Notes: generated by a model from the sequence alone, not told the origin. 64,000 nt of DNA from an uncultured virus (IMG/VR IMGVR_UViG_3300032931_000857) (IMGVR_UViG_3300032931_000857); one strand, 5' to 3'; shown: positions 29,972-62,100, counted from the first letter of the stretch. Program-made: numbers and translations.

Positions 29972-31176
29972 GCGAAAAGGAAACCTACGGTTTTAACCGT
30001 AGGATGAATTTTCGCATCTCCCTTCAAAATAAATTTTATTTTTTCAAATAAATGAAGTATATTAATAATATGAAACTGACACTTCAAATTAAACTTCTGC
30101 CGACGAATGAACAAGCAAAGAGTCTTGGGAAAACCCTGAAGGCTTGTAATGCCACTTGCAATGATATTTCTGAAACAGCATGGCAGACAAAAACATTCAA
30201 TCAGTTTAAGCTTCATAATCTGATTTACCATCAACAAAAAGAATTTTCGCATCTTACAGCACAAGCTATTGTTCGTTGTATTTCCAAGGTATCCGATTCT
30301 TATAAGCTCGATAAAAATGTTAAACGAATTTTCAGGCTTGAAGGTGGTATTACCTATGATTCCCGCATCCTTTCGTATAAAGAGAATGTTGTTTCGATCT
30401 GGTCTGTCGATGGAAGATTGAAGATTTCGTTTGTTTGTCACAATCAGAAATATCTTCCTCACATTAAAGGTGAAGCCGACCTTATTACCAAAAAGGGCAA
30501 ATGGTTTCTTTTTCAGACCGTTGAAATACCAGAAGAAATTATACATGATGTCGAAGAATTTATCGGAGTAGACTTTGGCATTGTCAATATTGCCACGCTG
30601 TCTTCCGGTGAAATAATGTCCGGCAAAGAGCTTAAAACATACAGAGAAAAACGTCAGAAGATTCGTTCGAGTCTCCAATCCAAAGGCACAAAGGGCTGCA
30701 AAAAGGTCTTGAAACGGCTTTCGGGAAAAGAGAAACGAACAACTTCTATCGTGAATCACACTATTGCAAAGAAAATCGTTGCGAATGCTGTACAGGAAAA
30801 TAAGGGAATTGCTCTTGAAAAGCTTAAAGGTATTCGCAAATCCGCCAATAATAAGGGAAAGAAATTTTGTTCTCGCGTTGGCAAATGGAATTTTGCAGAC
30901 CTTCGGACAAAGATTGAGTATAAAGCAAAACTTAATGGCGTTCCTGTAATCGTCGTTAATCCAGCATATACTTCGCAGACATGTTCTCATTGTCATAATC
31001 TTGGTTCCAGAAACGGCGAATCTTTTAAGTGTCCGCATTGTGGTTTTGAAACACATGCGGATGTTAATGCAGCTAAGAATATCGGGGCAGATGTAAATCT
31101 GCCTGAAAAATCGGTTAAAGAACATAAGGTTCCTAATCAGGTTTAAAGCCCACGGATTTATCCGTGGGATATTTAC
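29972..31176 (+). mobile_element. IS200/IS605-family tnpB-only element
   Basis: Left hairpin cctacggttttaaccgtagg, right hairpin cccacggatttatccgtggg, TTAC at both boundaries; higher GC than flanks. Confidence 0.8.
30070..31146 (+). CDS. tnpB: RNA-guided endonuclease TnpB
   Basis: GVDFG, ALEKL, HADVNAAKNI, Zn ribbon CSHC..CPHC. Confidence 0.92.
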   Translation: MKLTLQIKLLPTNEQAKSLGKTLKACNATCNDISETAWQTKTFNQFKLHNLIYHQQKEFSHLTAQAIVRCISKVSDSYKLDKNVKRIFRLEGGITYDSRILSYKENVVSIWSVDGRLKISFVCHNQKYLPHIKGEADLITKKGKWFLFQTVEIPEEIIHDVEEFIGVDFGIVNIATLSSGEIMSGKELKTYREKRQKIRSSLQSKGTKGCKKVLKRLSGKEKRTTSIVNHTIAKKIVANAVQENKGIALEKLKGIRKSANNKGKKFCSRVGKWNFADLRTKIEYKAKLNGVPVIVVNPAYTSQTCSHCHNLGSRNGESFKCPHCGFETHADVNAAKNIGADVNLPEKSVKEHKVPNQV

Positions 31177-31784
31177 TATTTTATCGCTTTTATTAATATC
31201 CAATATGAAGATGATCCATGGCCTGATAACATTTTATAAATCTCAATTATTTTAAATTTTACTATAGTAAGTAAATCTATAATTGATTGTTCTGAATATA
31301 TACGAAGATGATTTCTTGAAATTCTTCCACCTTCTGGAATTGTTACAATAATTGTTCCTTTATCTTTTAATACCCTATAAGCTTCAGAAATAGCATCCTT
31401 ATCATTAAAAACATGTTCAAGAGTTTCTCCCATTATTATACAGTCAAAAAAACTATTTTCAAACTCAAGCTCTTCTGCCATTCCTGTTTTAATAATAATT
31501 TTTTTATTAGAATGACAATTATTAATTTTAGCCATTTCAATTATTTTTTCACATATATCAATTCCACATATTTCTTCCACATCATTTATTTTTGAAGAAA
31601 GAAAAATACCTAATCCATTAGAGCATCCAATATCAATTACTCTTGGGCCATGTACTCTATCAATAATCCAGTTAAATCTATTTACAACTTGTTGATGCTT
31701 AGGATGCGTTTTATCAAAATATCTTTCCCATATTTGATCTAAATTTCCTGTGTTTCTATCTAATATAAATTTTTCTTTATCCAT
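31176..31784 (-). CDS. Class I SAM-dependent methyltransferase
   Basis: VIDIGCSNG, ETLEHV, EAYRVLKDKG. Confidence 0.85.
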   Translation of the reverse strand: MDKEKFILDRNTGNLDQIWERYFDKTHPKHQQVVNRFNWIIDRVHGPRVIDIGCSNGLGIFLSSKINDVEEICGIDICEKIIEMAKINNCHSNKKIIIKTGMAEELEFENSFFDCIIMGETLEHVFNDKDAISEAYRVLKDKGTIIVTIPEGGRISRNHLRIYSEQSIIDLLTIVKFKIIEIYKMLSGHGSSSYWILIKAIK

Positions 31785-44666: not shown

Positions 44667-46334
44667 TTATTGAACTGTTATAGCCGTATTTGAATCCGAT
44701 TCTTCACTATCTCCACCAATTAAATATTTAGAATACTCTCCACGAATAACTTTACATGCTATATTGCTAAACATGAATGAATGAAATGCATCATCAGGAA
44801 CTATATGATCATATTTTGTCATTCTTGTTTGTTCACTATATTCAGAAATTATACCGGTAAAATCCGGTTCAAATTCTTTAAACTGTTCATATCTAAAAAA
44901 AGATACTTCAGTTCTTTTTATTTCCATGATAATATCAGTCATTACTCGTGTTCTATTAATAATATAATGCCCTTTATTATGATCCCATTTTATTTTTTTT
45001 ATTAATGTTCCATGTTCATATATTTCAGCAAATTTAACAGGACCAAGAGCAGCTACCATTATGGCATTGGAAGTTCTTCCATCTCCACTATCTGCAATGG
45101 TAAGAGAGCAATCAAATTTTTTAATAATTTTTAACATATCTTTAATTTGAATTGTAGCTTCAGATAATTTTCCTGTATATTTTTTTTTAAATATAACAAT
45201 AAATTTATTAATATCATACATTCCAATTGTTAACATAGAATACGATGTACCCGATGCGGTATCTCCTTTTCCCCAATCTATACCGGCATATGTTTTTTTT
45301 CCTTTTAATCTTTTATCGGTATTTCCTATACCTTCTTCTATCATATCAACATTTTCACAACATCTTTTAATATCGGCAGAAGTAATAGGATGTCTGGCAG
45401 CTGCATATGACAATGCAAGAACCTCATTATAATACTTTTCAATACTATACTGAGTTTTAGTTTGTATTACGTTAATTTGCCATACTTTAGGATTTTTTTC
45501 ATTATTAATCCAATTTAAAACTATTTGAGGAAGTCTATATCCATCTATGAATCCGCTTCCCATTGATACCCATTGACCATTTTCGTAATAAATAGGCTTG
45601 CCACATTTATTACATATAAGACACGTATCACCAATATTGTTTTCATTAATATAATTATACTTTTTACATCCAGTATTTTCACATTTAATAATCCATTCAT
45701 TTTGAGTAGAATTAGCCCAACAATATCTTTCAAGAGTATTTTCAACAGTTTTTGGAGTTCCTGCATATAATTTACAATTGAATAAATGCATTGGAAGATT
45801 GGGTATAGTATCTTTCATTCTTTCCCATTTAGCAAGACTATGACTCATTGATTGTTCAACAACTGATATTTGATCGCTTATAATATCTTGAACTTCATCT
45901 ATTTCAATAACGTCAGCAGAAATTCCTCTTATTGAATCTGCAGTATGAAACATAGATCGTAAATAAATTTTACTTCCATTTACTAATTCTTTATAAGATA
46001 TTTGATCTTTAGTTTTAGTATCAAAATAATGATTTTTAATTATAGGAGAATCTTTTAAAGCAGTATCCAATTTATCAGTTGAAAATACTGATATTTGTTT
46101 ACCGGTTGGAGCCGCATACAATACATGATAATATGGATACTTAATAGCAGGTATAGCTGTTTTAAAACCTAATATAGTTGATTTATGTGTTTGCCTGCCA
46201 AATTTAAGAACTATAGCAGATGATGGTTTGTTGTAAATAGGAATTAAATGTTTCATGGAATTCTTTGGCATTTGCAAAGGTATTCCATTAAGTTGAAATA
46301 TATTTGATGCAAATTGAATAGGAGTTATAAACAT
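44667..46334 (-). CDS. terL: Terminase large subunit
   Basis: Walker A GRQTHKST, Walker B IEIDEVQD, GTP coupling motif, Zn ribbon, nuclease GIDWG and DDAFH. Confidence 0.8.
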   Translation of the reverse strand: MFITPIQFASNIFQLNGIPLQMPKNSMKHLIPIYNKPSSAIVLKFGRQTHKSTILGFKTAIPAIKYPYYHVLYAAPTGKQISVFSTDKLDTALKDSPIIKNHYFDTKTKDQISYKELVNGSKIYLRSMFHTADSIRGISADVIEIDEVQDIISDQISVVEQSMSHSLAKWERMKDTIPNLPMHLFNCKLYAGTPKTVENTLERYCWANSTQNEWIIKCENTGCKKYNYINENNIGDTCLICNKCGKPIYYENGQWVSMGSGFIDGYRLPQIVLNWINNEKNPKVWQINVIQTKTQYSIEKYYNEVLALSYAAARHPITSADIKRCCENVDMIEEGIGNTDKRLKGKKTYAGIDWGKGDTASGTSYSMLTIGMYDINKFIVIFKKKYTGKLSEATIQIKDMLKIIKKFDCSLTIADSGDGRTSNAIMVAALGPVKFAEIYEHGTLIKKIKWDHNKGHYIINRTRVMTDIIMEIKRTEVSFFRYEQFKEFEPDFTGIISEYSEQTRMTKYDHIVPDDAFHSFMFSNIACKVIRGEYSKYLIGGDSEESDSNTAITVQ

Positions 46335-46338
46335 TAAA

Positions 46339-47367
46339 TTAAATATCACCTTTAATATTTTCAAATAAATTTGGAATATCATCTATTTTAGTAATATGTT
46401 CTTCACAATTATCAAATTCTAATTGTACCTGTTTCATTTGATTAAAAAATTTAGTTGTAGAATCTTGATCAGACGCTCCAGTATGTTCTTTAACTTTAAT
46501 AAAAATATCTAACCATTGTTTAGCCAACTTAACACGCATTTCTTCTACATTACGTTTTGTAGTTTTTGTACTATCGAATACTCCAAACTTATCGTTCTGA
46601 CCCTCTTCTTTAATCTCTTCAATACTTTGAGTAGAATTCATTACTTCATAAAATTTGTATATACTATCAGTTTGAACCTGTTTAAGAAAATCATCAGTAT
46701 TAGGAGTTGTAATAGGAATTCCTAATTTCCATTTTATATAATTAATATTATGAAAATTAACCGTAACATCACTACCATCATTAGATGGACACTCAATTTC
46801 AGTATCATTATTAAATTTACGTATAATTAAAGTATTGTCATGAAAAGGAATGCAATACTTTAATGCATCTTTTGCAGTTAAATTATCAGTATCCCAAAAT
46901 ATTTTTTTATACAAATTTAACGCATCAATACCTATCTTTTTTTTATACTTTAACATTATTATATCAGATATATTTTCAAGTGGTTCGTTATTGAAAATGA
47001 ATATATTAACAATTGACATAACATCATAATAAGAATGAATCCAAACACAATCTTCACACCATTTAAAATAATTAGGAACATCTGAATTATTTTTATTATT
47101 ACTAGTTATATAATGATATAACTCAAATATATTTAATTTTTTCAACCATTCAACATGAATATTATTTTCTAAATTTAGTAATAATCTGTTATTTAAAATA
47201 TCAATAACACTTTTAGGAAGTGTAGATTTTAATTCATTTGAAATTAATAATATTTCATCTTCTGTTATATCATAATTAAATGATTTAAGCTTATCAATTA
47301 TATCATTGATAGTCTTACCACAAAATAATAAAGTAATAATAAAATTTTTAAATGGCACTTTATTCAT
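46339..47367 (-). CDS. Hypothetical protein, possible terminase small subunit
   Basis: Directly upstream of terL. Confidence 0.4.
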   Translation of the reverse strand: MNKVPFKNFIITLLFCGKTINDIIDKLKSFNYDITEDEILLISNELKSTLPKSVIDILNNRLLLNLENNIHVEWLKKLNIFELYHYITSNNKNNSDVPNYFKWCEDCVWIHSYYDVMSIVNIFIFNNEPLENISDIIMLKYKKKIGIDALNLYKKIFWDTDNLTAKDALKYCIPFHDNTLIIRKFNNDTEIECPSNDGSDVTVNFHNINYIKWKLGIPITTPNTDDFLKQVQTDSIYKFYEVMNSTQSIEEIKEEGQNDKFGVFDSTKTTKRNVEEMRVKLAKQWLDIFIKVKEHTGASDQDSTTKFFNQMKQVQLEFDNCEEHITKIDDIPNLFENIKGDI

Positions 47368-47498: not shown

Positions 47499-48572
47499 AT
47501 GAATACTCAAACAAAAATTGCTGGATCTTTTTTGAATAAGATGTTAACAGTAGGAGCTGGAGCTGCTATTGCTACTCCAGCTGCTGCTATAATAGGACAT
47601 AAACTTGGCTACCAATCAGGTGCTAGAAAGGCAAGTAATGAAATGGCTACACAATTTGATATTGCAAATCAAGAGGAAAATTCTCAAATTGCAAATGAAT
47701 TTTTTAATCGTGGAGTTAGAGCTGCTTCGGAAATACCAAAAGAAGCAATGGAATGCTATTATGAAGGGTTTAATGATGAACTTGAAAAGATTGGCGCTGG
47801 AGTACCTAAGTGGATGAAGGAAATGATGCCAAGTCTAAAAAAAGCATTAACTACTGGATACAAAGCAATTAAAGGCGCTCCAGGACAGGCTATAAAAGGA
47901 ACTAAAGAATCTTTTAAAGCAATGTATGGGAAAGGTCCAGGATCTATAACACAAGCTATTCAAGGAAAATCGTCTTTGAATAAAGCTTTTAAATCTTTAA
48001 AAGGTGAAAAAATTACTTCCCAATCACATCCTGCATTATGGCATGCAGGAGCCGAGGCCCCATCAGTAATAAAAGCTGTTGTTAAATCACTACCTGCTAT
48101 AGCAATCCAAGGTGCTGCAGCAACTGGAGCAGTATATGGTGGAGCTAAAGGAGTTAAAGCATTAACTGGTCATAAAAAAGAAGCTGGAATAAAAGAAGCT
48201 GGAGCGAAAGAAATATATCAAGCAGTTAAAGGTGCTGTTAAAGGCGTCGCCAAAGCAGGATATAAAGGAACCAAAGAATCTTTTGGAGCAGCATATGGAA
48301 AAGGGCCAGGAAGTATTAGAGCAAGTAGAATTATGGCCAATCCAAATTTATTTGATACAAAAACAAAAAAAGTTTTTGATAAAACAAAATTACTTGCAGC
48401 TGCTAAAAAAGCAGCTCCTGCAGTTGGGTTAACACTTGCAGGAGGCGGGGCAGCAGCGTATGGCGGAGTTAAAGGTGTTCAAGCTTTAACTGGTCATAAA
48501 AAAACAGCAGAACTAAATCAAACTAACAATCCTCAAATTCCAACAGGAACTGGGGCTGAACGTCGTTACTAA
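47499..48572 (+). CDS. Ala/Gly/Lys-rich putative virion protein with internal duplication
   Basis: KGTKESF.A.YGKGPGSI and YGG.KGV.ALTGHKK each twice; GFNDELEKIG motif. Confidence 0.6.
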   Translation: MNTQTKIAGSFLNKMLTVGAGAAIATPAAAIIGHKLGYQSGARKASNEMATQFDIANQEENSQIANEFFNRGVRAASEIPKEAMECYYEGFNDELEKIGAGVPKWMKEMMPSLKKALTTGYKAIKGAPGQAIKGTKESFKAMYGKGPGSITQAIQGKSSLNKAFKSLKGEKITSQSHPALWHAGAEAPSVIKAVVKSLPAIAIQGAAATGAVYGGAKGVKALTGHKKEAGIKEAGAKEIYQAVKGAVKGVAKAGYKGTKESFGAAYGKGPGSIRASRIMANPNLFDTKTKKVFDKTKLLAAAKKAAPAVGLTLAGGGAAAYGGVKGVQALTGHKKTAELNQTNNPQIPTGTGAERRY

Positions 48573-48642
48573 AATATTAATTGATTGACCATTCCTTAAC
48601 CTAAAGTACGAAGATCCCTGGTTCTTAAGTAGTTAACTATTA

Positions 48643-48678
48643 TGTTATTTTTTACAAAAATATGGTATAACAATAATG
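48643..48678 (+). promoter_or_regulatory. Putative phage promoter, motif copy 5
   Basis: TGTTATT-N13-TGGTATAACAATAATG. Confidence 0.6.
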
Positions 48679-48980
48679 AGTATGTTTAACCTACTTAAAG
48701 CATGTATATTATGGTTAAATGTTTCTGTTCACTAACAGATTCATGAAGTTGATTTTAACCCAACTGTCATGAATAAAAAATGAGGTTAAAGGTAAAAATA
48801 ATAATATCACGACCTACCTCGTTTTATTATTATAATTTAAAAAATATATATCGAAAGATATATAAGGTAGGATAATTTGATTTTATTTAGAGCAAAGACT
48901 TCTGCATAGATGTTAAAATGCAAGATAGAGTTTCCAGTTCTGTATTCAATGATTTTAATTGAACTGGCATGCTTTTTATT
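48676..48980 (+). ncRNA. Structured ncRNA candidate upstream of RT operon (msr/msd-like?)
   Basis: Serial hairpins 48724-48739, 48740-48773, 48777-48825, 48845-48864 (GAAA loop), 48934-48967; terminal pairing aaagcatg/catgcttt. Confidence 0.5.
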
Positions 48981-49034
48981 ATAATATTATATTATATTAT
49001 TTTATTATTTTTTTTTAATTATAAACAAAAAAAA

Positions 49035-49070
49035 TGTTATTTTCATGATAATTATGTAATAACAATTATA
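49035..49070 (+). promoter_or_regulatory. Putative phage promoter, motif copy 6
   Basis: TGTTATT-N13-TGTAATAACAATTATA. Confidence 0.55.
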
Positions 49071-49084
49071 GAAGATTTTTAAAG

Positions 49085-49118
49085 AGAGAATTAGATTCGT
49101 CTGATTCTCTTTTTTTTA
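49085..49118 (+). terminator. UUCG hairpin plus U-run in the operon leader
   Basis: agagaattaga-ttcg-tctgattctct-ttttttt. Confidence 0.6.
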
Positions 49119-49140
49119 TTTATTACCCAAAAAAAAGGAG

Positions 49141-50328
49141 ATGCATGTGGGATTAGAAAATTATTGTAATAAAAAGAAACACTATATTTTTTTTCATGAT
49201 GATATGGATGGCATATACACATCAGCCATATTTATTAAATCTTTTATTGAAAATGACACTAAAAATTTTCCAATCAAATTATGCCCTGTCAAAACATCAA
49301 TGAGAGGAATTAAATTTAATTCATTTATTAAAGAAATCTGTTTAAAAAATATAAATCCAAATATTATAATCATTGATTACCAATACAACGATTTATGTAA
49401 TATATGGATTGATCATCATCAAAACAAAGAGTTCACCGATAAAACAACTAATGAATTAATAGAAATATATAATAAAAAACATATTATATACTCAATAGGT
49501 GAAAAATCCGCAACACGAGTTTTATATAATTATATAATAAAAAATCAATCAAATAAATTAGATGTAATCAACAATTTTATTGATGATATTAATATTATAG
49601 ATATGATTGATTCTGCAAATTATACTAATGTAAATTCTGTTTTTAATAGTTTACATCCATTAATGATTTTAAGAGCATACCTTGAAAATATGAAATTATA
49701 TATTGATAATACATATTGTCGTATAGTTGAAAATATAGTTAAATATGATTTTGATATTGATGATCTATTATTTTCGATGAATATAGATAATTCAGAAGTT
49801 TTAAATTTAAAAAAAAGAGCTTTAAAAATTGAAAAAAATATAGTTAAAAATATTAATGTAGGAATAATATACTGTAATTCATTATATGAATATCCTAGAT
49901 ATTCTGAATTTTTTGTCAATCAAGACCTTCCTTATTCTATTAGAATTATAAATCATGGAGAAGAATCTATTCATTGTGAAATAGGAGCTAATCCATGGGT
50001 TGAATTTAGATACGATCTTAATATTGGTAAATTTCTTTCAGATCTTTCATATCCTATATCAGGAGGTGGGCATAAAAAAGTTGGAGGAGCAATATTGAAA
50101 ATTGGTGATTTAGATAAATTTTTAAATCAAATAACAACTTATATAAATGAAGGAGAAGATATTAGTATGGAAAAATATTCAGTTGACAAAGAAGATTCAG
50201 TTGAAAAAAAAGCTAATGAAATAGTTAAACAAGCATCATCTGAAAATAAAGAAATCACTATTGATGACGCACGCGAACAAGCTGTTAAAAAAATAGATAA
50301 AAAGGAGACTGGAGATGTTCAAGGATAA
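49141..50328 (+). CDS. DHH/DHHA1 family phosphoesterase
   Basis: HDDMDG, IIIIDY, WIDHH, GGGHKKVGG. Confidence 0.85.
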   Translation: MHVGLENYCNKKKHYIFFHDDMDGIYTSAIFIKSFIENDTKNFPIKLCPVKTSMRGIKFNSFIKEICLKNINPNIIIIDYQYNDLCNIWIDHHQNKEFTDKTTNELIEIYNKKHIIYSIGEKSATRVLYNYIIKNQSNKLDVINNFIDDINIIDMIDSANYTNVNSVFNSLHPLMILRAYLENMKLYIDNTYCRIVENIVKYDFDIDDLLFSMNIDNSEVLNLKKRALKIEKNIVKNINVGIIYCNSLYEYPRYSEFFVNQDLPYSIRIINHGEESIHCEIGANPWVEFRYDLNIGKFLSDLSYPISGGGHKKVGGAILKIGDLDKFLNQITTYINEGEDISMEKYSVDKEDSVEKKANEIVKQASSENKEITIDDAREQAVKKIDKKETGDVQG

Positions 50329-51385
50329 TAGTAATTTCGACATTCAATACTTTATGAATTCATCAATAGATGAAATTGATGAAATCATTGCAAATAAAGA
50401 TAAACATATAAGAAGAATGAATATACCTAAAAGTGACGGATCGTTAAGAAGTATAATTGCTCCTGATAACAAATTAAAATATATACAAAAAAGTATTTAT
50501 TGGAAATTTCTAAAAAAATATAAACCAAGCGATGCAGCTCATGGATTTGTTAATAAGAGGGGCATTGTAACAAACGCAAGATTGCACGTAGGAGCAATGT
50601 CTTTAGGAAAGATAGATATAAAAAATTTTTTTGATTCAATATCTCAAGATCATTTAAAAAATTGTCTTTTTGGAAACAAAGTAATTTGTAGGTTTTGTAA
50701 ATTTTATGATAGAATGCTTGAAAATGGATGCAATCCGTCATTGTATCATAATAAATTAAAAGATTATGAATTTAAATGCGAAGAAATTAAAGCCGTATTT
50801 ATTCCTGAATATTGTATCGAAACAGGATACCAATCATTAATGACACGAGTAATTGATATCTGTACTTATAATGGATTTTGCGCTCAAGGATTTCCAACAT
50901 CACCAATTCTTGCAAACCTCATTATGAGAGGTTTTGATAAAAAATTACTTGAACATTGTGAAAAAAATAATATAATATACACCAGATACGCTGATGACTT
51001 AACTTTCTCCAGTAAAACTATTAATAAAATCGAACTTGAAAAACAAGTAAAAAATTTAGCATATCAACAATTGTGGGCTTACAAACTGCGACCCAATAAG
51101 AAAAAAACTAAATTTAAATCTAAATCTGGAAGACTCAAAACATGCGGAATAATAGTTAATGTAAAAACGTCAGTCCCCAGATACGATGTAAGAATTTTTA
51201 GAGCAAAAGTTCATAATGCAACAAAAAAAAATCCAGATCAAACTACTAAAAAAATATTAAGAAAATTAAAAGGATGGGCGTCATATTTAATGTCTATTGA
51301 TGCTTATCAAGGTAAAAAATATATGGAAAAATTAAAACAGTTTGAAAAAGAAAAATTTGGCCTTACGACAAAGGGGGCCAAATGA
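50315..51385 (+). CDS. Reverse transcriptase, retron-like
   Basis: IPKSDGSLRSI, AAHGF, NARLH (NAxxH), DIKNFFDSI, QGFPTSP, RYADDLTFS, TCGIIVN (VTG-like). Confidence 0.9.
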   Translation: MFKDNSNFDIQYFMNSSIDEIDEIIANKDKHIRRMNIPKSDGSLRSIIAPDNKLKYIQKSIYWKFLKKYKPSDAAHGFVNKRGIVTNARLHVGAMSLGKIDIKNFFDSISQDHLKNCLFGNKVICRFCKFYDRMLENGCNPSLYHNKLKDYEFKCEEIKAVFIPEYCIETGYQSLMTRVIDICTYNGFCAQGFPTSPILANLIMRGFDKKLLEHCEKNNIIYTRYADDLTFSSKTINKIELEKQVKNLAYQQLWAYKLRPNKKKTKFKSKSGRLKTCGIIVNVKTSVPRYDVRIFRAKVHNATKKNPDQTTKKILRKLKGWASYLMSIDAYQGKKYMEKLKQFEKEKFGLTTKGAK

Positions 51386-51867
51386 TTTTTGAAATATATA
51401 CAGACGGAGCATGTTCTGGAAACAGATTAAATAGCGAATGCAAAGGAGGATACGGATATATAATTATATTAAATTATAAAAAAATTATGAAAGGTGGTGG
51501 ATTCCGTATCAATGTAACAAATAATCAAATGGAATTGATTGCAGTAATAGGAAGTTTATTACGATTAAAAAAATTTTTACGGTCATCACAATCATTAATA
51601 AAAGATCATGATTGCATTATTAATAGCGATTCTCAGTATGTAACTGAAAATTGGAATGATTATATTATAGAATGGGCAAATAATGGTTGGAGAAAATCCA
51701 ATGGAAAAGCTTTATTAAATAAAAAATTGTGGAAAAAAATATATTCATTAGTTTTAGAATTTAAAACTGTTAAATTTAAATGGGTTGAAGGTCATGGGGA
51801 TGATAAAAATAATCAAGAAGTTGATCATATAGCAAAAGATTTCATTAAAAGAAGTCCACATGAATAA
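51382..51867 (+). CDS. rnhA: Ribonuclease HI
   Basis: YTDGACSGN, TNNQMEL, NSDSQY, WVEGH, NQEVD. Confidence 0.92.
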   Translation: MIFEIYTDGACSGNRLNSECKGGYGYIIILNYKKIMKGGGFRINVTNNQMELIAVIGSLLRLKKFLRSSQSLIKDHDCIINSDSQYVTENWNDYIIEWANNGWRKSNGKALLNKKLWKKIYSLVLEFKTVKFKWVEGHGDDKNNQEVDHIAKDFIKRSPHE

Positions 51868-52075
51868 AAGTGATTACAAAACTCCTAATGCTAAAAAAAT
51901 AATTAAACACGTAAAAAAAATTACCGATACTATATTTGATTTGGCAGATGCTATTGTTGATAATAGCAACACCATTTCAAATGAAGTAAAAGAAATTAAA
52001 AATATAAAAAAAGAATTCAGAAGAAAGAATCTTAGTAAAAGTAAAGATTCTAAGTTGGGTGAATCGCCCAACTAA
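51860..52075 (+). CDS. Small basic hypothetical protein, last gene of RT operon
   Basis: Overlaps the RNase H stop. Confidence 0.55.
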   Translation: MNKSDYKTPNAKKIIKHVKKITDTIFDLADAIVDNSNTISNEVKEIKNIKKEFRRKNLSKSKDSKLGESPN

Positions 52076-52260
52076 GTAGGTAATTAGTTCATTGTTCCAC
52101 TTTAGTTTAAAGTGGAACAATTTCTATTACCTGCCTGTTCACGAACTTTTTATAAAAGTTCGTGCAGGGCCATACAGGTTAAGATCCCTGTCTGGCCCCG
52201 ACCCCAGCCAGGTATTGTCTGATAATTCTTACTCTCGTATTCGACACGGGAGTTTTTTTT
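52076..52260 (+). ncRNA. Structured segment downstream of RT operon ending in terminator
   Basis: ttgttccacttt/aaagtggaacaa, cacgaactttt/aaaagttcgtg, GC-rich small stems, actctcgt..acgggagt plus T-run. Confidence 0.5.
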
Positions 52261-52262
52261 AG

Positions 52263-54470
52263 CTATTTACCAATAGCAATTTTAATTTGTTCAAGATTTT
52301 GTATAACTTCAGTTATTCCATCAATAGCTTTCTTAGTAGCAGACTCATTAATCATTGTTAATCCCATGCGAGATGCAATTAGATATTTAGATAATTCGTT
52401 GACAACTTTTTCCATTTCATCAATATTATCAACATAATCTATTAAACTATCTTTATTAATAAAATTAAGAGACAGAACAACATCAACAGCATCAGGACTT
52501 GCCAATTCACTAGCTTCTTTTACTAAATTTAATTTTATTTTATCAGATATCTGCGAAAACAAACTATCAATATTAGCTTTTTTTTCTATTGATTTAAATG
52601 AATCAGGATTAATATAATCATCATTAACGCCAAAAATTGAAACATCTTTATCAATAATAGAATTATTAGATAATTTTAAAAGAGCAGATGTCATTGCAAT
52701 CTTTATCATATCATCAGACATTCCCATTATTTTTAATACAGTTTTAGTATGAATAGTCGATAATGGATTTACTAAATGAGCAACCTTTTTTAAAGGATCA
52801 AATGCTGTTCCTTTAATTTTATATCCATCATTTGTCGCTTTAATTTTTATTTCATTTATACCCGAATTTTCATATATTTCTTTTATTGGTAAACTTGGAG
52901 TCATAAATCCATTCCTACCGGTTGTAGGAATATATCTCATACGCTGTGTATTAATAACTATTGAAGATTCAGGAATTAAATAAATATTTTTAACATTACC
53001 TAATGCCATTTTGTATATTGGATTTTTAACTGCAGTTACTTTTTGAACTGATATAATATTAGCTGGAATTATAGCTGATTCATTACTGACATATGCATTA
53101 TTATCATTAATTTTAATTTTTTTAAATTTATCATTAAAAAGAATACATTCATAAGAATTATTAGCTCCATAAATTATAATTAATGACGAACTCGACGAAC
53201 TCACAGAAGAATCACATGAACAAAACGAATTATATCCAATTCCTTGATTCATATCTTTTATATAATTAAAAGATTTGTCAGCTCCATCATTTTTATTTTC
53301 AGAAGAAATATTAATAATATCATTATTAGTATTATCTTTAATCATGTCAATAGCTTTTTCAAGAGCGCCAACTCCAGTCAATGTTTTTAATCCATAAAAT
53401 CCAATACCTTTTTTATCATAATCTGAAAATTCAGAATATAAATTTCCATCAAGAGAAATAAATATCTGATCTCGTCTATTTTTTATTAACATTTTATCCT
53501 TATTTTTTTCTTCATATTTACCTGATAATGGCGCTGCAGTTGCACATTCATTTGAATCATACAAATCACTAGATTTTTTATAATCAAGAACAACTCCAGA
53601 TATAGGAATCCCATTATTAGAAGATTCAAATCTCCCAATTGCACTATTTCCACTCTCAATAAATTGTTCTAACGATGGTTGTTCATATATTCTTAATTCA
53701 CATACAGTAGGAGCTATCATTGGTTGTAATTTATTTACATCAAATATTTGAGAATCTATTGTAGTAACAACTCGCTTTGCTTGTATTACATCATTTACAT
53801 CTAAGACACCAGATTTTTCATTGTTAGGAATAACTTTAGGAGTTTCAAGATCTATAAGATTGGTCATTAAATCTCCTGTATTTTCAACAAATTTTTGACT
53901 TATAGTAGGATCACTTTCTAATTGTATAGCAAATTTTTCAAGATCTTCTTTTAATATCTTTTTATTCCATGATGATAATTTAGCAAAAGTTGGATATGAA
54001 GCATCGTCAATATTTCCAATAGTATTTGCTCTTTTAGGATATACACCACCAACACTTTTAATAGATTCTGAATTTCCCTGATCTTTATAAATATCTTCAG
54101 GTTTGCCAATTTTTTGACTAATTAACAATTTGGTCATATTAATAATATTTGCAGGATAATATTTAATAATATCTTTATCTTGATGTACGAATGTATCAAA
54201 TGGAGATAATTGATAATTATTAACTATAATAGGAAAATTAATTTGCTTATTATTATAAGACACTACAATACTTCCCTTAGCATATCCCTTATCTTCATCA
54301 ATATTATTAACTACAATATCTACATTATATTCTTTAGGAATGTAATTAATCTCTTCAAAAAATTTACTCATTATTTCATCATTCCAATCAGAAATATTAT
54401 TTGAAAGTTTATAAGTAGAAAGTTTAATAAACTCAGTTTGAGGAATAACAGCATCTTTAATACTAACCAT
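52263..54470 (-). CDS. Large hypothetical virion-associated protein
   Basis: 735 aa; multiple KxA motifs; AAGGA RBS. Confidence 0.6.
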   Translation of the reverse strand: MVSIKDAVIPQTEFIKLSTYKLSNNISDWNDEIMSKFFEEINYIPKEYNVDIVVNNIDEDKGYAKGSIVVSYNNKQINFPIIVNNYQLSPFDTFVHQDKDIIKYYPANIINMTKLLISQKIGKPEDIYKDQGNSESIKSVGGVYPKRANTIGNIDDASYPTFAKLSSWNKKILKEDLEKFAIQLESDPTISQKFVENTGDLMTNLIDLETPKVIPNNEKSGVLDVNDVIQAKRVVTTIDSQIFDVNKLQPMIAPTVCELRIYEQPSLEQFIESGNSAIGRFESSNNGIPISGVVLDYKKSSDLYDSNECATAAPLSGKYEEKNKDKMLIKNRRDQIFISLDGNLYSEFSDYDKKGIGFYGLKTLTGVGALEKAIDMIKDNTNNDIINISSENKNDGADKSFNYIKDMNQGIGYNSFCSCDSSVSSSSSSLIIIYGANNSYECILFNDKFKKIKINDNNAYVSNESAIIPANIISVQKVTAVKNPIYKMALGNVKNIYLIPESSIVINTQRMRYIPTTGRNGFMTPSLPIKEIYENSGINEIKIKATNDGYKIKGTAFDPLKKVAHLVNPLSTIHTKTVLKIMGMSDDMIKIAMTSALLKLSNNSIIDKDVSIFGVNDDYINPDSFKSIEKKANIDSLFSQISDKIKLNLVKEASELASPDAVDVVLSLNFINKDSLIDYVDNIDEMEKVVNELSKYLIASRMGLTMINESATKKAIDGITEVIQNLEQIKIAIGK

Positions 54471-56198: not shown

Positions 56199-59100
56199 TT
56201 ACTTATTTTTTCCATATTCCCCTGTAATAAGTTGAGTAATTGGATTTCCTACATTAGGATCAATAACACTTTTAAATCCCTGAGTTGTCCCTTCTTCAAG
56301 AACTTTTGCTATTCTATTATGTGCTAATCGTGAAATCCAATCTTCGCTTGTTTGAGCCTTTGCGCTTATTCCTGCAGGAGTTAAAAATGGTTCATGTTTA
56401 ATTTTATCTTTAAAAATATTTATTCTTTTAACTCCTTTATTACTTAAATCTTCAATAATATTATTTGTAATTTTAGTATTTTTTTTGTATATGCCATAAT
56501 TTTGAGATAAATGATCGCCTTCAGTATTTTCAATATCATCTTCTTTATTATTATTGTTATTATAATATTCTACAGTTGTTAATGGAGCAACATCATAAGG
56601 GGCGTATGTACTTGATCCTGGATGTAATATTCTTGTTGTATTCGTTATACCCCTAACAACAGTCTCGATATCTCTTGAATCAAGTTTTCCTTCATTAATA
56701 TTATTTATTTCTTTTACAAGAAATTTTTGAGCGTCTTTAAATCCTCTATATTTTAAAACATCATGCACACTTGTTGTTCCTGTTGAAATATTATCACCCA
56801 TAAATACTTTATCACCTTTTTTAACAAGCAGCTCAGTATTAGGATCTATATAATGAACGTCTTCTTTTTTATCATTTTGCAATACAACATCCCATCCGCC
56901 AATAGGAGATTTAATAATATTTTTTACTATCCCATCAATACTTGCAAGGGTTGATTTGTTAGGTATATTTGTAGTAAATCTTAAGACTCTTTCCAATACA
57001 TCAAATGCAGATCCAGTTTTTCCTGCGGCTACAGTTCCTCCTGTATGAAAAGCCTTCATAGCTAATTTTAATGAAGGTTCGGTTATTGTATGAGAGGAAA
57101 TAATTCCTATATTATCACCTATATTATGTAATTTTCCATCATAATCAGCTCCATAAGAATAACTTGAAAATCCATCACCTGGAGTTGGATCGGTAATAGG
57201 TGATTGTACAAATATATTTTTTACTTTATGACTGTTCAATTTATTTACAAGATCACTATCGACAAGATCATTTCTTTTTGCAAGAATTTTTCCATGAGTA
57301 TCTTTAACGTCTTTTGCCAAATATCTATTAATAATAGATTTCTTATCATCAATATTAAATTCAAAACCAACCGTATCGACAGGATCTTCACTGCTAATTC
57401 TTGTTTCATAAATAGAATTAGTAAGATCTTTTGTTAACCATCCTGGCTTAAACGATTGTACTGATTTCTGTATATTTCCACTTCTTGCCCCATGAGCTGC
57501 GGCCCAATATTGAGAAGTATTAAGTCCTTCAGAATAAGATTTAGTAATTGGAACAGGAACAGCGGCTCCATCTATATCCGTAACTATTCCAGGCATTAAT
57601 GCTATAGATGCAAAATTACTTATACCCTTACCTGCTCCTGATTTTAAACCAATACCAACCATAGTGTTTTCATCATAATCAGATTCTAATTTTTTAATAC
57701 CTTTTGATACCGCTTCATTAAATGACTTAACAATAGAAGAACTATCATCCTTACTAACATTTTTCCATGCATCAGACACTAATTTATCTTTAAATTTTTT
57801 ATCAATAATGGTATCTGATACTCCTAATGTCAATCCATAAGTTGTAACATAATTATTTCCAACATCTTTAATCTTGTCCGCAAGGGCAAGTGCCTGTTTT
57901 CCATTATATTTTTTTACTACATCACGAATCCATCCTTCGGTATTTTTGCTTGTTAATTCTATATTATATTTTTTCATATCATCAGGAACTATAGAATTGA
58001 TTTCATGCATACCAAATGGAGCCTTTATATTATTAATAGTCACATTGTCACCATAAGTAAATTTATTATTTTTAAAAGACTCACGAGCATCGTCTATATT
58101 ATTAAAAGATAAATTGGTTTCTTTTCCACCTTTACCTTTTGAGACAAGCCAACTTCCTGCAGTTATATCAAGAGATGGCTTATTAAGAACTGTATCATAA
58201 CCGGTTTTAAGCATACTGGCAGAGGGTTTCATTAATTCTGCCTCTTGTAAAGCTTTTGACGAAATAGGAACATGTAATTGAAATGTGTCTTGACAAATAA
58301 TACCATTATTTAACATAAACGTATATGAACCAGGAGCTGTTATATCATACATGGTAAGAAGTTCTTTATTTAATTCTATATTTTTAGCATATACCCATGT
58401 AATATTTTTATTATTAACTATTTCAATCCATCTATCATCCGCAATACCTTTAGGCAGTATAGTAATTATTTTAATAGCTGTTGGTCTTGATATACATCCA
58501 GAATTTACAGCATCATACATTGAACTATATAAGTTAGAATATTTATTTGATTTTATATGTAACCTGAATTTTATATACATATCATCACTAAAAGGAACCA
58601 TATCAAGTCTGGCAGCCATTGAAGCGGATGTTTCGCCACCTGTTGCTTGAAATTTTTCAAAAGCTTCTTTTTTATCAGGATTTATAAAATTAAGTTTTTT
58701 ATCAACAATAGTCTGGGTTGAAAATACAACAGTATACTCAACACATGTATCACGTTCAGAAGAAGTAATTGATGCTGAAATTCCAAGAGTTCGTGAAAGA
58801 GTTACTATTTCTTCCGCAAGACGTACAGACGTCGTAGAATACAATAATATATACTGTGATTTTTTACCTTGTGAATGGTTCCATGTAGACGTTCCATCCG
58901 TATCTATAAGACCGGATAGAAGGCCAAGACGAAACTCTTCTGAGGTAGACATAAAAAATATAGGAAGATGTTTGTTTCTAGCTAAATGACCAATCCAAAT
59001 TTTAATATTTTGTGCAAGAGAAATACTTGTTTTAGTGTGTTTTGTACTAAAACAATCATAACCCATAAATGAATGAGGAGAATCGATAGAATAAATTCCT

Positions 59101-62100
59101 ATATCTTCTTTCATCATTTTATTAATAGTATTATTAAATATTTTTTTTATTTCTGGATGAACAGTAGCCATACAAATATCAACATTATTAGAAATCCAAC
59201 CATTACCAATCATAATTCCAATAAAATGTCCAACTTCTCTTGTTAATTCAATTTCATCAATACATTTAATAGTATTTTTTCCAGTTATTAAATTAATATC
59301 ACTTTTTGAATAATCAATTAATGGAATTTTAAATAATGACGGTATTATATCAAGTTTTCTAAGTTTTGGAATAGCTTTTTTTAATAAATCTCTAGGAGAA
59401 ATTCTTTCAAGTTCAAATGTAATCATATTAAGTGCTATTGCACTTTGATCACTTGATAATATCAATTCATTTTTATCTGATAATTTTACAATATAATTAG
59501 TAAGATTCTTATGAATTGAAAATTGTGTAACAGGAACTTCTAAAAATTTATGAGTCTTACTATCTATTGTAAATATAGATACTCCATCAGGAACTTTATA
59601 TAATTCATTTCCATTATTTTGAATTTCACATGAATCTTTAATTCTTGGAAAATTCTCAATATTAATGTGAATAATAGACTTATCACCTATTATTACAGGA
59701 AGATTATTAAGACATGGCATATTAACCTCCAGCGATTTAAGTAAATAATACATTTGTTTGCTGGAATTAATATACATATTTTCACAATTAATGTCAAGAT
59801 CTTTTTTAAAAAAAAGTGAACCAAAATCTATTTTATCAAATTGTTCACATAAATCGTTTATTTTTAATGAGATATACAATCCACAAAAAATAGAATCTCC
59901 GTCAAAATCACCACCCATGTTTTCTACTACTGTTATGCCAGGAACTTCAATAGATTTGCCATCAGTTAATTTAGGTTTAAATGCAGTCATATTCCATCTA
60001 TGCAATGTAGGCGCCCTGTTAGCTATAACCAGTCTCTCGTCGCTTACAACCTGTAATGCTCTCTGATATATAGGATCATTATCCTTAATAAGTTTCTGAG
60101 CCTCAACGGGCTTATATCCCCACTCAACCATCTTCTTCATAATAAATGGCTGGAAAATTTTCCCAGCCATTATTTTGGGGATTCCCAATTCGTCACCGCC
60201 AAGTTCAGGGTTCAATATAATAGTCGATCTTCCAACCAAGTCCTGCCTGCGCTCAAGCACTTTATCCTGAAAAAAACCTTCCTTAGTTTGTTTTGTAGCG
60301 CCTCCATCAATCTGAGGAATAAATCCTTTCTTATTTTTTACTTTATGCAAATAAGACGTAGGATCTCCCATACCAACAACAGCCTTTAAATCATTATACA
60401 ATGCCCCTCTCGCTTCTGCAAGTTGTAAATTTTTTATATCTTCATTATCAATAGATTCATCTAAAGTTGTTTTCAAATTCTTTAATGCACTTGATGTATA
60501 AGCGGTTTGTTGATACAAATCATTAATATCAGATACAACAACAGTTCCTTCTGTTCCAATTTGAAATACAGGACGAAATTTTGAAGGAGTAACTAAAACA
60601 TTCGATATAATATAATCAGAAGGTTTCATATTGTTATCTTTAATCGATTTCAAATAACGAATTTTTTTATGTATCTTATTAAGTTCAGTAGGATTGGTTA
60701 TTGTTTTTGAATCTTCTTCAGCATTTTTAAGTTCATTTTTTACATTAATACGTTCAAGAAGAAGTTTAACTGCAGGCCCTCCTGATATAGAATTTGGAGA
60801 CCCAGGCTCAACAATTTTACCATTTGACTTATCTATAAATTTTTTTCCTATTAAAATATTATCTAAATGAGTAATAGGCATATCTAACAAATTTGCAGTT
60901 GCTGAAGTTGTTATAGGGTTCAATGTTGGTTCTGGAAGTTTAAAATAAGTGAAATTATTACCATATAAACCACCAGCTTTTACAGGATCAAATAATCCAT
61001 CTTTAATTGGAGCAAGATCCTTTTTACGATATGACAATTCAGGTCTGGTTATTTCTCCACTAGATATTTCAATAATATCTTTATCAGTCATAGGTTTTAA
61101 TGCAAACGTTTTTCCTTTTTGTTCAACATTAATTCCAGCCCCTGACATCATAGCCAACATCTTATCCCATGCAAATGATCTTTTAGGAGGAGGAAGGCTT
61201 TGTCCGGTTTCCATAGCCCTCCAATACTCATCATTTTTTTGACCTTTAATCTGAAACATTTCACGCAAATTCTCATTAGCTCCTCGTGCTAATAATGCAG
61301 CCATTTCCATTCTACCTAAATTTTTTCCTCCCGTTATACCGCCAGTAGCGGCCTGCTCATTAGCATCATAACTATCTTTATATCGAGCTGAAAATTTATG
61401 ATCAACAATATGTTCAAGTTTTAAAATATGAGCCGTGCCTGTAGCAATAGGATTTAATAATGGTTTTTTGGTCTCAGGATCAATTAAAATATCTTTATCT
61501 GACAATCCTTCTTTTTTTAACTCACTAATAATTTTACGAGAATTATCCTCTCCTGAAAAATTATTTATATCATAAGTTTTTCCTGTTTTACTTACTAATT
61601 TACCTACAGCAGCTTCAAGTAATTGAGATGTATTTATTCTATTTGAAACTCCTAAAGGACTCATTGTTAAATCAATTTTTTCTCCAGTTTCCAAATTATA
61701 AGGCATCTCATCGTCAGGAACAATTTTAGAAATGATATGTTTATTTCCATGCAATCCAGATATTTTATCAGCAACCTTTAACTGCTCTTCAGTCTTTATA
61801 TTAACAACTACATTATTTCCACTTTTAGTAACTTTTTTTACAACTCCTATTATATCTTTATCCCATAGCAAAGCATTATTAGACATATCTCTTTTTAATT
61901 GCTTGTCAAGCCTTCCTAAAATTATATCATCTGACGTTGGTGATTTTCTTTCAAGATGAGCAATAACAACATCGTCTCTTTCAACTGTCTCTCCAACTTT
62001 AATAACTCCGTCACTATCTAATTTTTTTGATTTATTTGATGGCAATACTTCAGGATAATATGCTTTAAATTTATCACGCGAAAAAACTCCATTAGAAGTT

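Follow-up and report, generated by a model that had tools for sequence, protein, structure and literature searches.

The window, the stretch of 64,000 nucleotides of viral DNA that was analysed, carries an operon of four genes that encode a DHH/DHHA1 phosphoesterase, a retron-clade reverse transcriptase (RT), an RNase HI and a small protein, and that ends in a conserved structured RNA. This module is best read as a self-contained, retron-like machine for cDNA of the msDNA type, probably kept as a core function of the phage; we put the probability of this reading at roughly 0.6. The identities of the four proteins, the structure and covariation of the RNA and the linkage of all parts are documented below. 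Conservation of the module in the phage lineage suggests that a small DNA copy of the RNA is made for the phage's own use.

Organization of the locus

The positions of the genes, the RNA and the associated signals are given in Table 1. An earlier note on this DNA had described four overlapping ORFs as a plus-strand island amid minus-strand genes, and the coordinates and overlaps (14, 4 and 8 nt between consecutive ORFs) were confirmed. The flanking minus-strand genes are TerL (44667-46382) with a 342-aa ORF, and a 735-aa ORF (52263-54470) that is portal-like. The plus-strand island holds a fifth ORF as well (47499-48572).

Table 1. Features of the module and its flanks, numbered from the first letter of the window. 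Helix coordinates of the RNA were read by hand from the sequence.
Feature	Position	Strand	Evidence or remark
Promoter-like motif, copy 1 (…TATGGTATAACAATAAT)	48642-48677	+	Exact motif match at 48661-48677
Structured non-coding stretch, this phage only	48681-48985	+	MFE z = −3.4; module membership doubtful
Promoter-like motif, copy 2, directly before the operon	49034-49069	+	3 mismatches at 49053-49069
15-bp hairpin then U-run ahead of the DHH gene, in its 5' leader	49081-49114	+	Terminator-like site
DHH/DHHA1 phosphoesterase, NrnA/PggH-like, 395 aa	49141-50328	+	Motifs, profile and structure search
Retron-clade RT, 356 aa, with Cys-rich insert of ~57 aa (residues ~113-169)	50315-51385	+	PF00078, 4.5e-20
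RNase HI, 161 aa	51382-51867	+	PF00075, 5.2e-27, 95.2 bits (cut-off 25.8)
Small protein, 71 aa, weakly conserved family	51860-52075	+	3' end overlaps the structured RNA
Conserved structured RNA of ~250 nt, retron msr/msd-like	52011-52260	+	Covariance model R1, fold, covariation
Closing helix P0	52011-52021 with 52218-52230	+	Hand-read
Candidate priming G	52023	+	Hand-read
Hairpin S1	52025-52032 with 52044-52051	+	Hand-read
Hairpin S2	52055-52061 with 52065-52071	+	Hand-read
Hairpin S3	52091-52121	+	Hand-read
Helix P-J	52130-52137 with 52205-52212	+	Hand-read
Hairpin S4	52140-52150 with 52154-52164	+	Hand-read
Hairpin S5	52167-52178 with 52187-52198	+	Hand-read
Conserved motif CCCCGACCCCAG	52196-52207	+	Hand-read
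Intrinsic terminator ending operon and RNA	52231-52260	+	Site 52231-52253, then U-run

The recurring promoter motif that had been placed ahead of the operon was indeed found there in two copies, which belong to direct repeat family D16 and are 75% identical to each other; the motif also occurs at 1611-1627 with one mismatch. With up to 3 mismatches allowed, the window has 8 matches where 3.1 would be expected, a count that a single one of 100 shuffles reached. In relatives, the motif comes after the terminator of the module. Viral contigs were also scanned with CCCCGACCCCAGNCNG; among the matches listed (at least 120), 4 of 120 stretches carry module genes, all from contigs already known to carry the module, and the remaining listed matches are probably due to chance.

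Structured RNAs had been proposed on both sides of the genes. Compared with shuffled sequences, both stretches fold more stably (z-scores in Table 1 and below), but conservation and covariation were found for the downstream stretch only. The upstream stretch is specific to this phage; it has no plus-strand ORF of at least 40 aa and no Rfam or tRNA match, and in relatives it is replaced by ORFs of about 85-130 aa. The template-like RNA is the one downstream of the genes, and the end of the 71-aa ORF runs into it.

The reverse transcriptase

The top PADLOC matches of the RT were all retron RTs, the best being RT_XIII (4.5e-63, 212 bits in two stretches). The nearest solved chain is the retron Ec86 RT (7v9u, 7e-27), which aligns from fingers to thumb in two stretches flanking the Cys-rich insert. 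With NCBIfam models, the RT scored 206 bits on retron_St85_RT, just under the cut-off of 235, compared with 63 bits for group II and 50 bits for Drt2. These matches bear out the assignment to the retron class made in the earlier note. The best matches among GenBank phages were Staphylococcus phage records related to MarsHill, at 32% identity.

The motifs YADD, QGFPTSP and NAxxH are conserved, and so are C125, C128, C139 and C155. NAxxH reads TNARLH in the window, with N87 and H91 invariant among 20 homologues. The RT of the window lacks the VTG triplet of retrons: it has TCG, its KTCGIIVN aligning with KVTGLVIS of Ec86, and relatives have mostly (I/V)CG. Of the two motifs on which the class had been based earlier, NAxxH therefore stands, together with YADD, and the VTG-like one falls.

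In a tree of 56 sequences, a check proposed beforehand, the insert-bearing RTs form one group of their own (SH-aLRT 99) beside types II-A and III-A. Labelled neighbour RTs reach 1e-76 to 1e-182 on PADLOC models, whereas 4.5e-63 is the best value of the window RT, and no PADLOC retron RT model gave a value as good as 1e-75 with any of seven distant insert-bearing RTs. Judged by these scores, the RT lies below member level on the type XIII, II-A and III-A models. The Cys-rich insert corresponds to no PADLOC retron type at member level.

Proteins encoded with the reverse transcriptase

The motifs HxDxDG, D, DHH, D and GGGH of the DHH protein are invariant in 12 homologues. An alignment profile matched PggH (7d62) at 6e-11 and also the PAP phosphatase 8a8k; the Pfam DHH and DHHA1 scores are under their cut-offs. 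When an AF2 model (pLDDT 81.9) was submitted to Foldseek, PggH came first (7.9e-15, probability 1.00), followed by PAP phosphatase, archaeal RecJ, NrnA and GdpP. The protein has the two-domain fold and all catalytic motifs of the PggH, NrnA and PAP-phosphatase DHH-DHHA1 enzymes, from which it differs by its low identity (14-17%) and by a conserved C-terminal tail of its own (MEKYxVD…EAR). The subfamily comprises 38 proteins, all scoring at least 279 bits and all from this phage lineage in a word-index search, which can miss distant relatives.

The 161-aa protein matched the NCBIfam ribonuclease HI model at 1.1e-30, and the D/E/D/D positions are present as read by eye. With the Pfam match of Table 1 and the Foldseek result, the DHH and RNase H ORFs named in the earlier note proved genuine. 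In P0129, a distant relative, the RT and RNase H are fused. In the complete 164-kb relative G001, the module RNase HI is the sole PF00075 match and, being the only RNase H of that phage, it could serve replication instead.

Relatives have a small ORF at the position of the 71-aa protein, even at loci without RNase H, and its family motif there is FNxVVDATxxFLKxIFP. The 71-aa protein itself gave no above-threshold family match in Pfam, PADLOC or NCBIfam. No PADLOC family, and hence no known retron effector model, was matched by the DHH, RNase H, 71-aa or 357-aa protein.

The structured RNA

A covariance model, R1, was made from a hand-defined structure on a subgroup of six sequences; MAFFT with RNAalifold on a diverse set recovered hairpin S2 alone. 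The sole match of R1 in the window (52025-52259) scored 71.2 bits with an E value of about 1e-18. The structured RNA is present at all 41 close loci with at least 600 nt beyond the RNase H or RT gene, at 39 as a full-length plus-strand match of R1 and at 2 as a reduced copy seen by eye. R1 gave no match in four phages that are further removed, in which partial features alone were seen by eye. Wherever R1 matched, the RNA comes after the RT, the RNase H and the small ORF.

The RNA is closed by a 15-bp helix (P0). Its 5' part has two hairpins and its 3' part has further ones, some variable and some conserved; a CCCCGAC motif that is invariant and the terminator complete it. G residues border the closing helix: an unpaired one follows its 5' arm in 37 of 39 copies, and a G precedes its 3' arm in 39 of 39. 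The two 5' hairpins, S1 and S2, presumably resemble those of the Ec86 msr. For 52008-52262 the fold z-score is −9.9, and the MFE structure reproduces P0 and the hairpins.

Covariation was assessed on an alignment of 40 rows (the 39 full-length copies and one short antisense match). Pairing was possible in 93.3% of the cells, compared with 64.8% in shuffles, and the covariation score was 0.527, compared with 0.146 in shuffles and 0.055-0.095 with slid partners. Compensatory changes were seen in 65 of the 73 modelled pairs, including 15 of 15 in P0, counts that are biased in favour of the model by the fitting of the alignment to R1. RNAalifold re-predicted 73 of 73 pairs from the same alignment, and of 26 single-sequence MFE folds, made as an alignment-free check, 21 contained P0. 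P-J is the weakest helix, with pairing in 86% of the cells, and an extended S3 competes with it in the MFE fold. In the terminator helix (helix 8), 9 of 9 pairs covary.

The 735-aa gene converges on the operon, and its stop codon is directly next to the terminator. The terminator loop repeats the CCGAC motif: CCGA(C/T) occurs in 24 of the 36 terminator-including copies and TCGAC in 5 more. With up to 3 mismatches allowed, the conserved motif was found nowhere else in the G001 genome. The RNA family is newly recognised; no Rfam family matched it at E values up to 10 in the window and six relatives.

Conservation in the phage lineage

The phage lineage that carries the module is one of uncultivated large sediment phages, with contigs of up to about 208 kb. 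A blastn search of 48600-52300 against GenBank phages gave no match, and the best GenBank phage matches of TerL are just 26-27% identical, a distance at which an assignment to the crAss-like phages was not made with confidence. The sole crAss-like hint is a 2583-aa protein with RNA-polymerase-beta-like segments. The cellular genomes searched contained two close loci only, both on MAG contigs (one of 168 kb), which are taken to be mis-binned phage DNA.

The earlier note had named a synteny search as a check, and homologous RTs apart from DHH and RNase H as evidence against a module. The linkage held over 69 distinct RT loci: the DHH gene is directly upstream of the RT gene at 46 of 46 informative loci, and the RNase H gene is downstream at 47 of 50, being absent from 3. 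Among TerL-anchored loci with enough flank, 12 of 12 have the module. Its position between TerL and the portal-like gene is constant across relatives; even phages whose RT is merely 38-47% identical retain the order TerL-p342 / DHH-RT-(RNase H) / p735, and throughout the lineage the divergence of the module parallels that of TerL and of the portal-like gene. Overall, the module is a fixed, vertically inherited component of the lineage and not a variable island. A gene set of DHH, retron RT, RNase HI and small protein was found neither in the papers searched nor among the PADLOC retron types, in agreement with the earlier remark that the architecture is unlike that of described retrons.

Proposed mechanism and alternative explanations

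From the protein identities and the layout of the RNA we infer cDNA synthesis, its start site and the roles of the RNase H and DHH proteins. The module is a single plus-strand operon behind the phage promoter motif, with the ~250-nt RNA and its intrinsic terminator at the 3' end. The long-range helix P0 would join the ends of the RNA, as the a1/a2 repeats of retrons do, the RT would bind S1 and S2 (the msr-like part), and the near-invariant unpaired G beside P0 may be the point of priming. The 3' part of the RNA (msd-like) would then be copied into a small single-stranded DNA, GGUUCUG first, then the CCCCGAC motif, S5 and finally S4. The phage-encoded RNase HI would strip the copied RNA, and the NrnA/PggH-like DHH protein may degrade the resulting short RNA pieces or trim the product. 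Several observations count against the retron-like reading: the downstream position of the RNA, the lack of VTG, the lack of a match to any known retron effector, the absence of RNase H from 3 of 50 loci, the presence of this RNase H as the only one in the G001 genome, the weakness of helix P-J, and the four distant phages missed by R1.

Because the module is at one place in every informative relative, a role in the phage's own infection cycle is favoured, in host takeover or counter-defence, or in replication or packaging; abortive-infection defence cargo is less likely. More specifically, and only tentatively, a retron-made DNA or RNP might be needed for the phage life cycle and be produced early in infection with the phage's own RT, RNase H and DHH protein. 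Such a cDNA could act as a primer or cofactor for replication or packaging, or as an obligatory decoy against host immunity; replication or packaging is suggested by the position of the module between the terminase and portal-like genes.

The RT and RNA could also be a real retroelement to which the DHH and RNase HI are merely adjacent as ordinary phage enzymes, the RNase H removing replication primers and the DHH protein acting as a nanoRNase or a signalling-nucleotide phosphodiesterase. This would fit an RNase HI that is alone of its family in G001 and is missing at 3 of 50 loci though the RT and RNA stay, and a DHH protein whose nearest structures act on dinucleotides and pAp. We consider it unlikely in view of the invariable DHH-RT adjacency (46 of 46) with overlapping ORFs, the RT-RNase H fusion in P0129, and the limitation of the DHH subfamily (38 proteins, word-index search) to this lineage. 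Known retrons are tripartite defence systems, some of them carried by temperate phages, and a retron-class RT would be expected if the module were a phage-carried system for defence or superinfection exclusion, with the DHH or small protein as an effector restrained by the RT-DNA complex. Defence cargo is usually variable; this module has kept a single site, with a divergence that follows that of TerL and the portal-like gene, no neighbouring protein matches a PADLOC effector model, and a PggH/NrnA-like enzyme is no obvious toxin, which makes a defence retron rather improbable.

A still different role for the RNA, as a cofactor, scaffold or regulatory 3' UTR and not a template, with the RT making another product or copying other RNA, is in our view quite improbable. 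Some defence-associated RTs do make other products, the RT has an unusual Cys-rich insert and no VTG, and the recurrence of CCGAC in the terminator loop resembles a protein-binding site more than a template; set against this are the retron layout of closing helix, flanking conserved Gs and two 5' hairpins, and the alignment of the RT with the Ec86 RT through the thumb. Diversity-generating retroelements (DGRs) and group II introns both occur in phages according to the available text of two papers (PMC11054128, PMC12386605), and the probability that the module is either is minimal, its position being fixed in all relatives. A search of 40000-64000 gave no template/variable repeat pair, which makes genome diversification of the DGR kind, a form of the diversification considered in the earlier note, unlikely; the RT matches, too, are of the retron type. 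For a group II intron, the RT scored 63 bits against a cut-off of 300 (group_II_RT_mat), and no intron RNA family of Rfam matched in the window or six relatives at E values up to 10.

Relation to known systems

Bacteria are known to use retrons against phages. The maturation of retron msDNA involves RNase H, which is normally supplied by the host, and in described retrons the ncRNA lies upstream of the RT, a usual order that is not strictly defining. With the bacterial retrons, of which II-A (Ec86) and III-A are nearest, the module shares an RT of the retron clade and an adjacent RNA with an inverted-repeat closing helix, a conserved unpaired G, 5' hairpins and longer 3' hairpins. It is unlike them in having its RNA downstream of the RT, an RT with an insert of ~57 aa rich in Cys and (I/V/T)CG instead of VTG, and RNase HI, DHH/DHHA1 and a small protein as partners with no known effector, and in belonging to the syntenic core of a phage lineage. 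The pairing of RT with RNase H, fused in P0129, is also found in retroviruses and LTR elements; this is an analogy only, the RT here being of the retron clade, the RNase H of the bacterial HI type and the element not mobile.

The available text on the lytic jumbo Staphylococcus phage MarsHill describes a retron-like RT (gp206) with no recognisable effector and a suspected ncRNA nearby (10.1101/2020.12.14.422802), all of which recalls the module in its large phage. It differs in an RT of 501 aa with an N-terminal domain and in the upstream position of the presumed ncRNA, and no RNase H or DHH partner is mentioned in that text (10.1101/2020.12.14.422802). The viral RT clusters RTC3 and RTC5 from global metagenomics are reported to have common ancestry with retron RTs, the available text describing no gene neighbourhood, RNA or mechanism for them (PMC13681634). 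In the same texts the role of the retron-like RT is left open, both for the jumbo-phage RTs (10.1101/2020.12.14.422802) and for the viral clusters (PMC13681634).

Here a retron-type RT and its RNA are no less strictly conserved than the phage's packaging genes, and they are accompanied by enzymes that would normally come from a host, which points to a viral use of RNA-templated DNA. Should the function in the core life cycle hold, the module would be the first example of a retron-type system whose role is pro-viral and not defensive. The module offers a compact system of four genes and an RNA for asking what retron-like RTs do in lytic phages, and the RNase H that it brings along might be relevant to tools that produce DNA with retrons.

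Organization of the locus

The module of this uncultivated sediment phage comprises four overlapping + strand ORFs (overlaps of 14, 4 and 8 nt), whose coordinates in the earlier note were confirmed by ORF reading. These genes stand in a + strand island between − strand genes, as had been proposed, with the large terminase (TerL) and a 342-aa ORF (p342) on one side and a portal-like 735-aa ORF (p735) on the other. The first gene of the island encodes a 357-aa protein and has direct repeats within it (families D2 and D4, 79–81% identical). Of this protein, relatives show no more than a short recognizable N-terminal part, and a search for a family match to it gave none. The promoter-like motif does recur: its core is exact at 48661-48677 and carries one mismatch at 1611-1627, and in relatives the element is also found behind the module terminator. 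Directly behind such a terminator and motif copy, locus L004 carries a tRNA (L004:7063-7127, Rfam 39.7 bits); a tRNA search of the window gave none. Structured non-coding segments had been claimed on both sides of the genes. Both flanks form more stable folds than shuffled sequences (z = −3.4 upstream, −9.9 downstream), but conservation is confined to the downstream side; upstream, relatives have small ORFs in place of the intergenic stretch.

Positions of the module, its flanking genes and other features in the window, with the basis of each assignment
Feature	Position	Strand	Basis
RNA ligase	4637-5656	+	phrog_968, 2.7e-74
Transposase	12650-13882	+	phrog_506, 2.2e-109
411-aa ORF	29968-31203	−	
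364-aa ORF	30052-31146	+	
Large terminase (TerL)	44667-46382	−	phrog_675, 7.6e-56
357-aa ORF, repeat-rich, Ala/Gly/Lys-rich; first gene (fifth ORF) of the + strand island	47499-48572	+	
Promoter-like element (36 nt), first copy	48642-48677	+	
Promoter-like element (36 nt), second copy	49034-49069	+	
DHH/DHHA1 phosphoesterase (ORF1)	49141-50328	+	motifs, profile, fold match
Retron-clade RT (ORF2)	50315-51385	+	PF00078, 4.5e-20
RNase HI (ORF3)	51382-51867	+	PF00075, 5.2e-27; NCBIfam, 1.1e-30
71-aa small ORF (ORF4)	51860-52075	+	ORF reading
RNA closing helix (P0)	52011-52021 with 52218-52230		
Module RNA, full-length match	52025-52259		covariance model R1, 71.2 bits, E ~1e-18
Terminator hairpin	52231-52253		
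735-aa ORF (p735)	52263-54470	−	ORF reading
2583-aa ORF (longer if read to the window end)	56199-63950	−	phrog_3295, 2.5e-23

Conservation of the module

Searching a collection of 5.8 billion proteins yielded 364 RT homologues at E ≤ 0.001, the best 120 of which are 54–99% identical and lie on contigs of up to 208 kb. The window is 99% identical to an IMG/VR genome of 164 kb that is bounded by direct terminal repeats. An RT-alignment search of viral loci found 19, and the 17 close ones all have TerL and p342, then DHH-RT-RNase H, then p735, as far as the contig extends. With 71 metagenome loci added, the set held 69 distinct RT genes. The co-occurrence of the three enzymes, on which the earlier note had staked its reading, holds in the loci with enough sequence: DHH lies directly upstream of the RT in 46/46 and RNase H downstream in 47/50, the exceptions being L188, L190 and L195. 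A TerL-anchored search found the module in 12/12 loci with enough flank (the remaining 8 of 20 end too early). The arrangement is kept in L216, L228/L229, L230 and L231, where the RT is 38–47% and TerL 55–59% identical; RNase H was not detected in L228/L229. Bacterial and archaeal genomes contributed two close loci only, both on MAG contigs (one of 168 kb), which we read as mis-binned phage DNA. Among GenBank phages there was no RT closer than 32% and no TerL closer than 27%.

The reverse transcriptase

By sequence comparison, ORF2 is an RT of the retron clade. Its top PADLOC matches are all retron RT models (RT_XIII 4.5e-63, III-A 2.1e-58, II-A 2.7e-57). In NCBIfam it reaches 206 bits on retron_St85_RT (cut-off 235), and the group II and Drt2 models give 63 and 50 bits. 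Among solved structures the RT of retron Ec86 is closest (7e-27). The Ec86 alignment falls into two stretches that flank an insert of ~57 aa (residues 113–169). Among 20 homologues YADD and QGFPTSP are invariant, as are N87 and H91 of the NAxxH motif. The insert, too, has several invariant cysteines, of which the wider family keeps four. NAxxH, one of the two retron RT motifs named in the earlier note, is thus present. The other, VTG, is replaced: the window RT has TCG, and the relatives mostly (I/V)CG.

A library of 1.84 billion proteins, searched at a threshold of 1e-30, gave 83 RT representatives; ~13 match in a single stretch and are insert carriers, the others being ordinary retron RTs with two-stretch matches. 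Of seven distant insert-bearing RTs tested against the PADLOC retron RT models, none reached 1e-75. The RTs closest to them either carry the label XIII, II-A or III-A, with scores of 1e-76 to 1e-182, or carry no label. A quick IQ-TREE tree was built from 56 sequences (16 insert-bearing RTs and the 40 nearest others from the 1e-30 set) over 308 alignment columns, the 50% fill rule having removed the insert columns. In this tree, which has no outgroup and samples the retron types in part, one branch separates the insert-bearing RTs from the others (SH-aLRT 99), and they join types II-A and III-A weakly (84). P0129 (565 aa), a distant relative with the insert, joins RT and RNase H in one protein, and both domains exceed the Pfam cut-offs. 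In another homologue, P0124, residues 140–161 of the insert gave a weak match to Pfam LRV_FeS (FeS4 cluster; E = 0.00096, below cut-off), and the four conserved cysteines might hold an Fe-S cluster rather than zinc.

The accessory proteins

In Pfam, ORF1 stayed below the thresholds of the DHH and DHHA1 models. In an alignment of 12 homologues all catalytic motifs are kept (HxDxDG, D, DHH, D, GGGH), and the alignment profile picks out PggH, which is a pGpG phosphodiesterase (6e-11), as well as a PAP phosphatase. The AlphaFold model (pLDDT 81.9) also matched PggH best (7.9e-15), followed by PAP phosphatase, archaeal RecJ, NrnA and GdpP. On the basis of the motif alignment, the profile and the predicted fold, ORF1 is therefore assigned as a small two-domain NrnA/PggH-like phosphoesterase rather than a bacterial RecJ. 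The DHH and RNase H assignments of the earlier note were both upheld; the RNase H of the module is the only PF00075 match in the complete 164-kb relative genome (G001). No protein family match to ORF4 was found; relatives have a small ORF at the same position with the common motif FNxVVDATxxFLKxIFP.

A structured RNA downstream of the genes

The conserved RNA element lies downstream of the genes, where common blocks and hairpins are found between RNase H and p735 (13 loci). A covariance model (R1) was made from a hand-written structure on a six-sequence subgroup with a clean consensus; it matches once in the window and in 39 of the 41 close loci whose sequence runs on for 600 nt or more past RNase H or the RT, including all three without RNase H. 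The two misses (L183, L185) hold a reduced copy readable by eye, and in five loci with RTs 25–28% identical R1 gave no match. Short versions in more distant or divergent phages (L228:6190-6340, L185:6600-6770) retain, besides the closing helix, a hairpin of the S2 type and one or two others, which suggests a minimal core of ~110–170 nt. The RNA has no match in Rfam.

From its 5' end the RNA consists of the 5' arm of P0, an unpaired G and hairpin S1; hairpin S2 with a UUU loop on top, closed by an invariant G-C; a variable hairpin S3, outside the R1 model; helix P-J around the variable long hairpin S4 and the conserved hairpin S5; an invariant single-stranded CCCCGAC(C)CCAG followed by GGUUCUG; and the 3' arm of P0, followed by an intrinsic terminator. 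A G follows the 5' arm in 37/39 copies and precedes the 3' arm in 39/39. In the window the RNA starts inside the 71-aa ORF, the last ~60 nt of which overlap the P0 5' arm, S1 and S2.

The alignment of 40 rows (39 full-length copies and one short antisense match) was fitted to R1, which biases it in favour of that structure; in it 93.3% of the cells pair (64.8% in shuffles), and the covariation score is 0.527 (0.146 in shuffles, 0.055–0.095 with slid partners). Compensatory changes occur at 65/73 pairs, including 15/15 of P0, and RNAalifold returned the identical 73 pairs from the same alignment. Independently of any alignment, the closing helix appears in 21/26 single-sequence MFE folds and in that of the window itself. 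The loop of the terminator hairpin, in the window and in relatives, repeats the core of the invariant motif: of the 36 copies extending over the terminator, 24 have CCGA(C/T) there and another 5 have TCGAC. The repeat might serve as a further binding site or pair with another part.

Relation to known systems and proposed function

A full-text literature search for phage or viral retrons, for RTs of crAss-like phages and for DHH- or RNase H-linked RTs found no description of this gene set among the papers listed; the earlier note had not recognized the architecture among described retron/DRT types either. The crAss-like RTs in the available text of two papers are DGR enzymes (PMC11054128, PMC12386605), and a survey, in its accessible part, names viral retron-like RT clusters without neighbourhood or mechanism (PMC13681634). 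As far as the accessible account goes, a preprint on Staphylococcus jumbo phages describes a retron-like RT that lacks an effector, with an ncRNA presumed to lie upstream (10.1101/2020.12.14.422802), whereas the module RNA is downstream. The module shares with bacterial retrons the RT clade and the RNA architecture, but departs from them in the VTG motif, the gene order (retron RNA normally lies upstream of the RT) and the lack of a known effector. By this comparison it would be a retron variant, working like a retron outside any described type.

Retron RTs prime from the 2'-OH of a conserved G next to the paired RNA ends, and in bacterial retrons the host RNase H removes the copied template. 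The anatomy and linkage of the module parts are direct observations, and by analogy these parts match the requirements for copying one particular RNA into a small DNA that is set free. How synthesis is primed, which part of the RNA is copied and what RNase H and the DHH enzyme do are inferred. The retron-type polymerase would make DNA from the 3' part of the module RNA, with priming at the conserved G beside the paired ends (candidate 52023) as in retrons; the phage RNase H would remove the copied template RNA, and the nanoRNase-like DHH enzyme would clear RNA fragments or trim the product. The earlier reading as a cDNA-producing module is supported in part, namely in the retron-class RT and its linkage to RNase H and DHH, and is sharpened by the RNA family downstream and the core status of the module. 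Its weak points are the loss of the RNase H, the sole one of the genome, from 3/50 loci, the downstream RNA, the lost VTG and the CCGAC of the terminator loop. The module might instead be variable defence cargo, but its position and content are strictly conserved and it has diverged about as far as the packaging genes. This speaks against such cargo and makes a part in the infection cycle of the phage itself more likely.

Other features of the phage genome

The 2583-aa ORF has RNA-polymerase-beta-like segments and also matches two large PHROGs without known function; its product may be a virion RNA polymerase. A protein with such segments is reminiscent of crAss-like phages and hints at a possible affiliation with them. 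The transposase and RNA ligase genes belong to that half of the phage genome which is read from the + strand. The 411-aa and 364-aa ORFs, neither with a PHROG match, overlap almost completely in antisense, in a stretch with GC up to 0.37 and a reversal of the GC skew.
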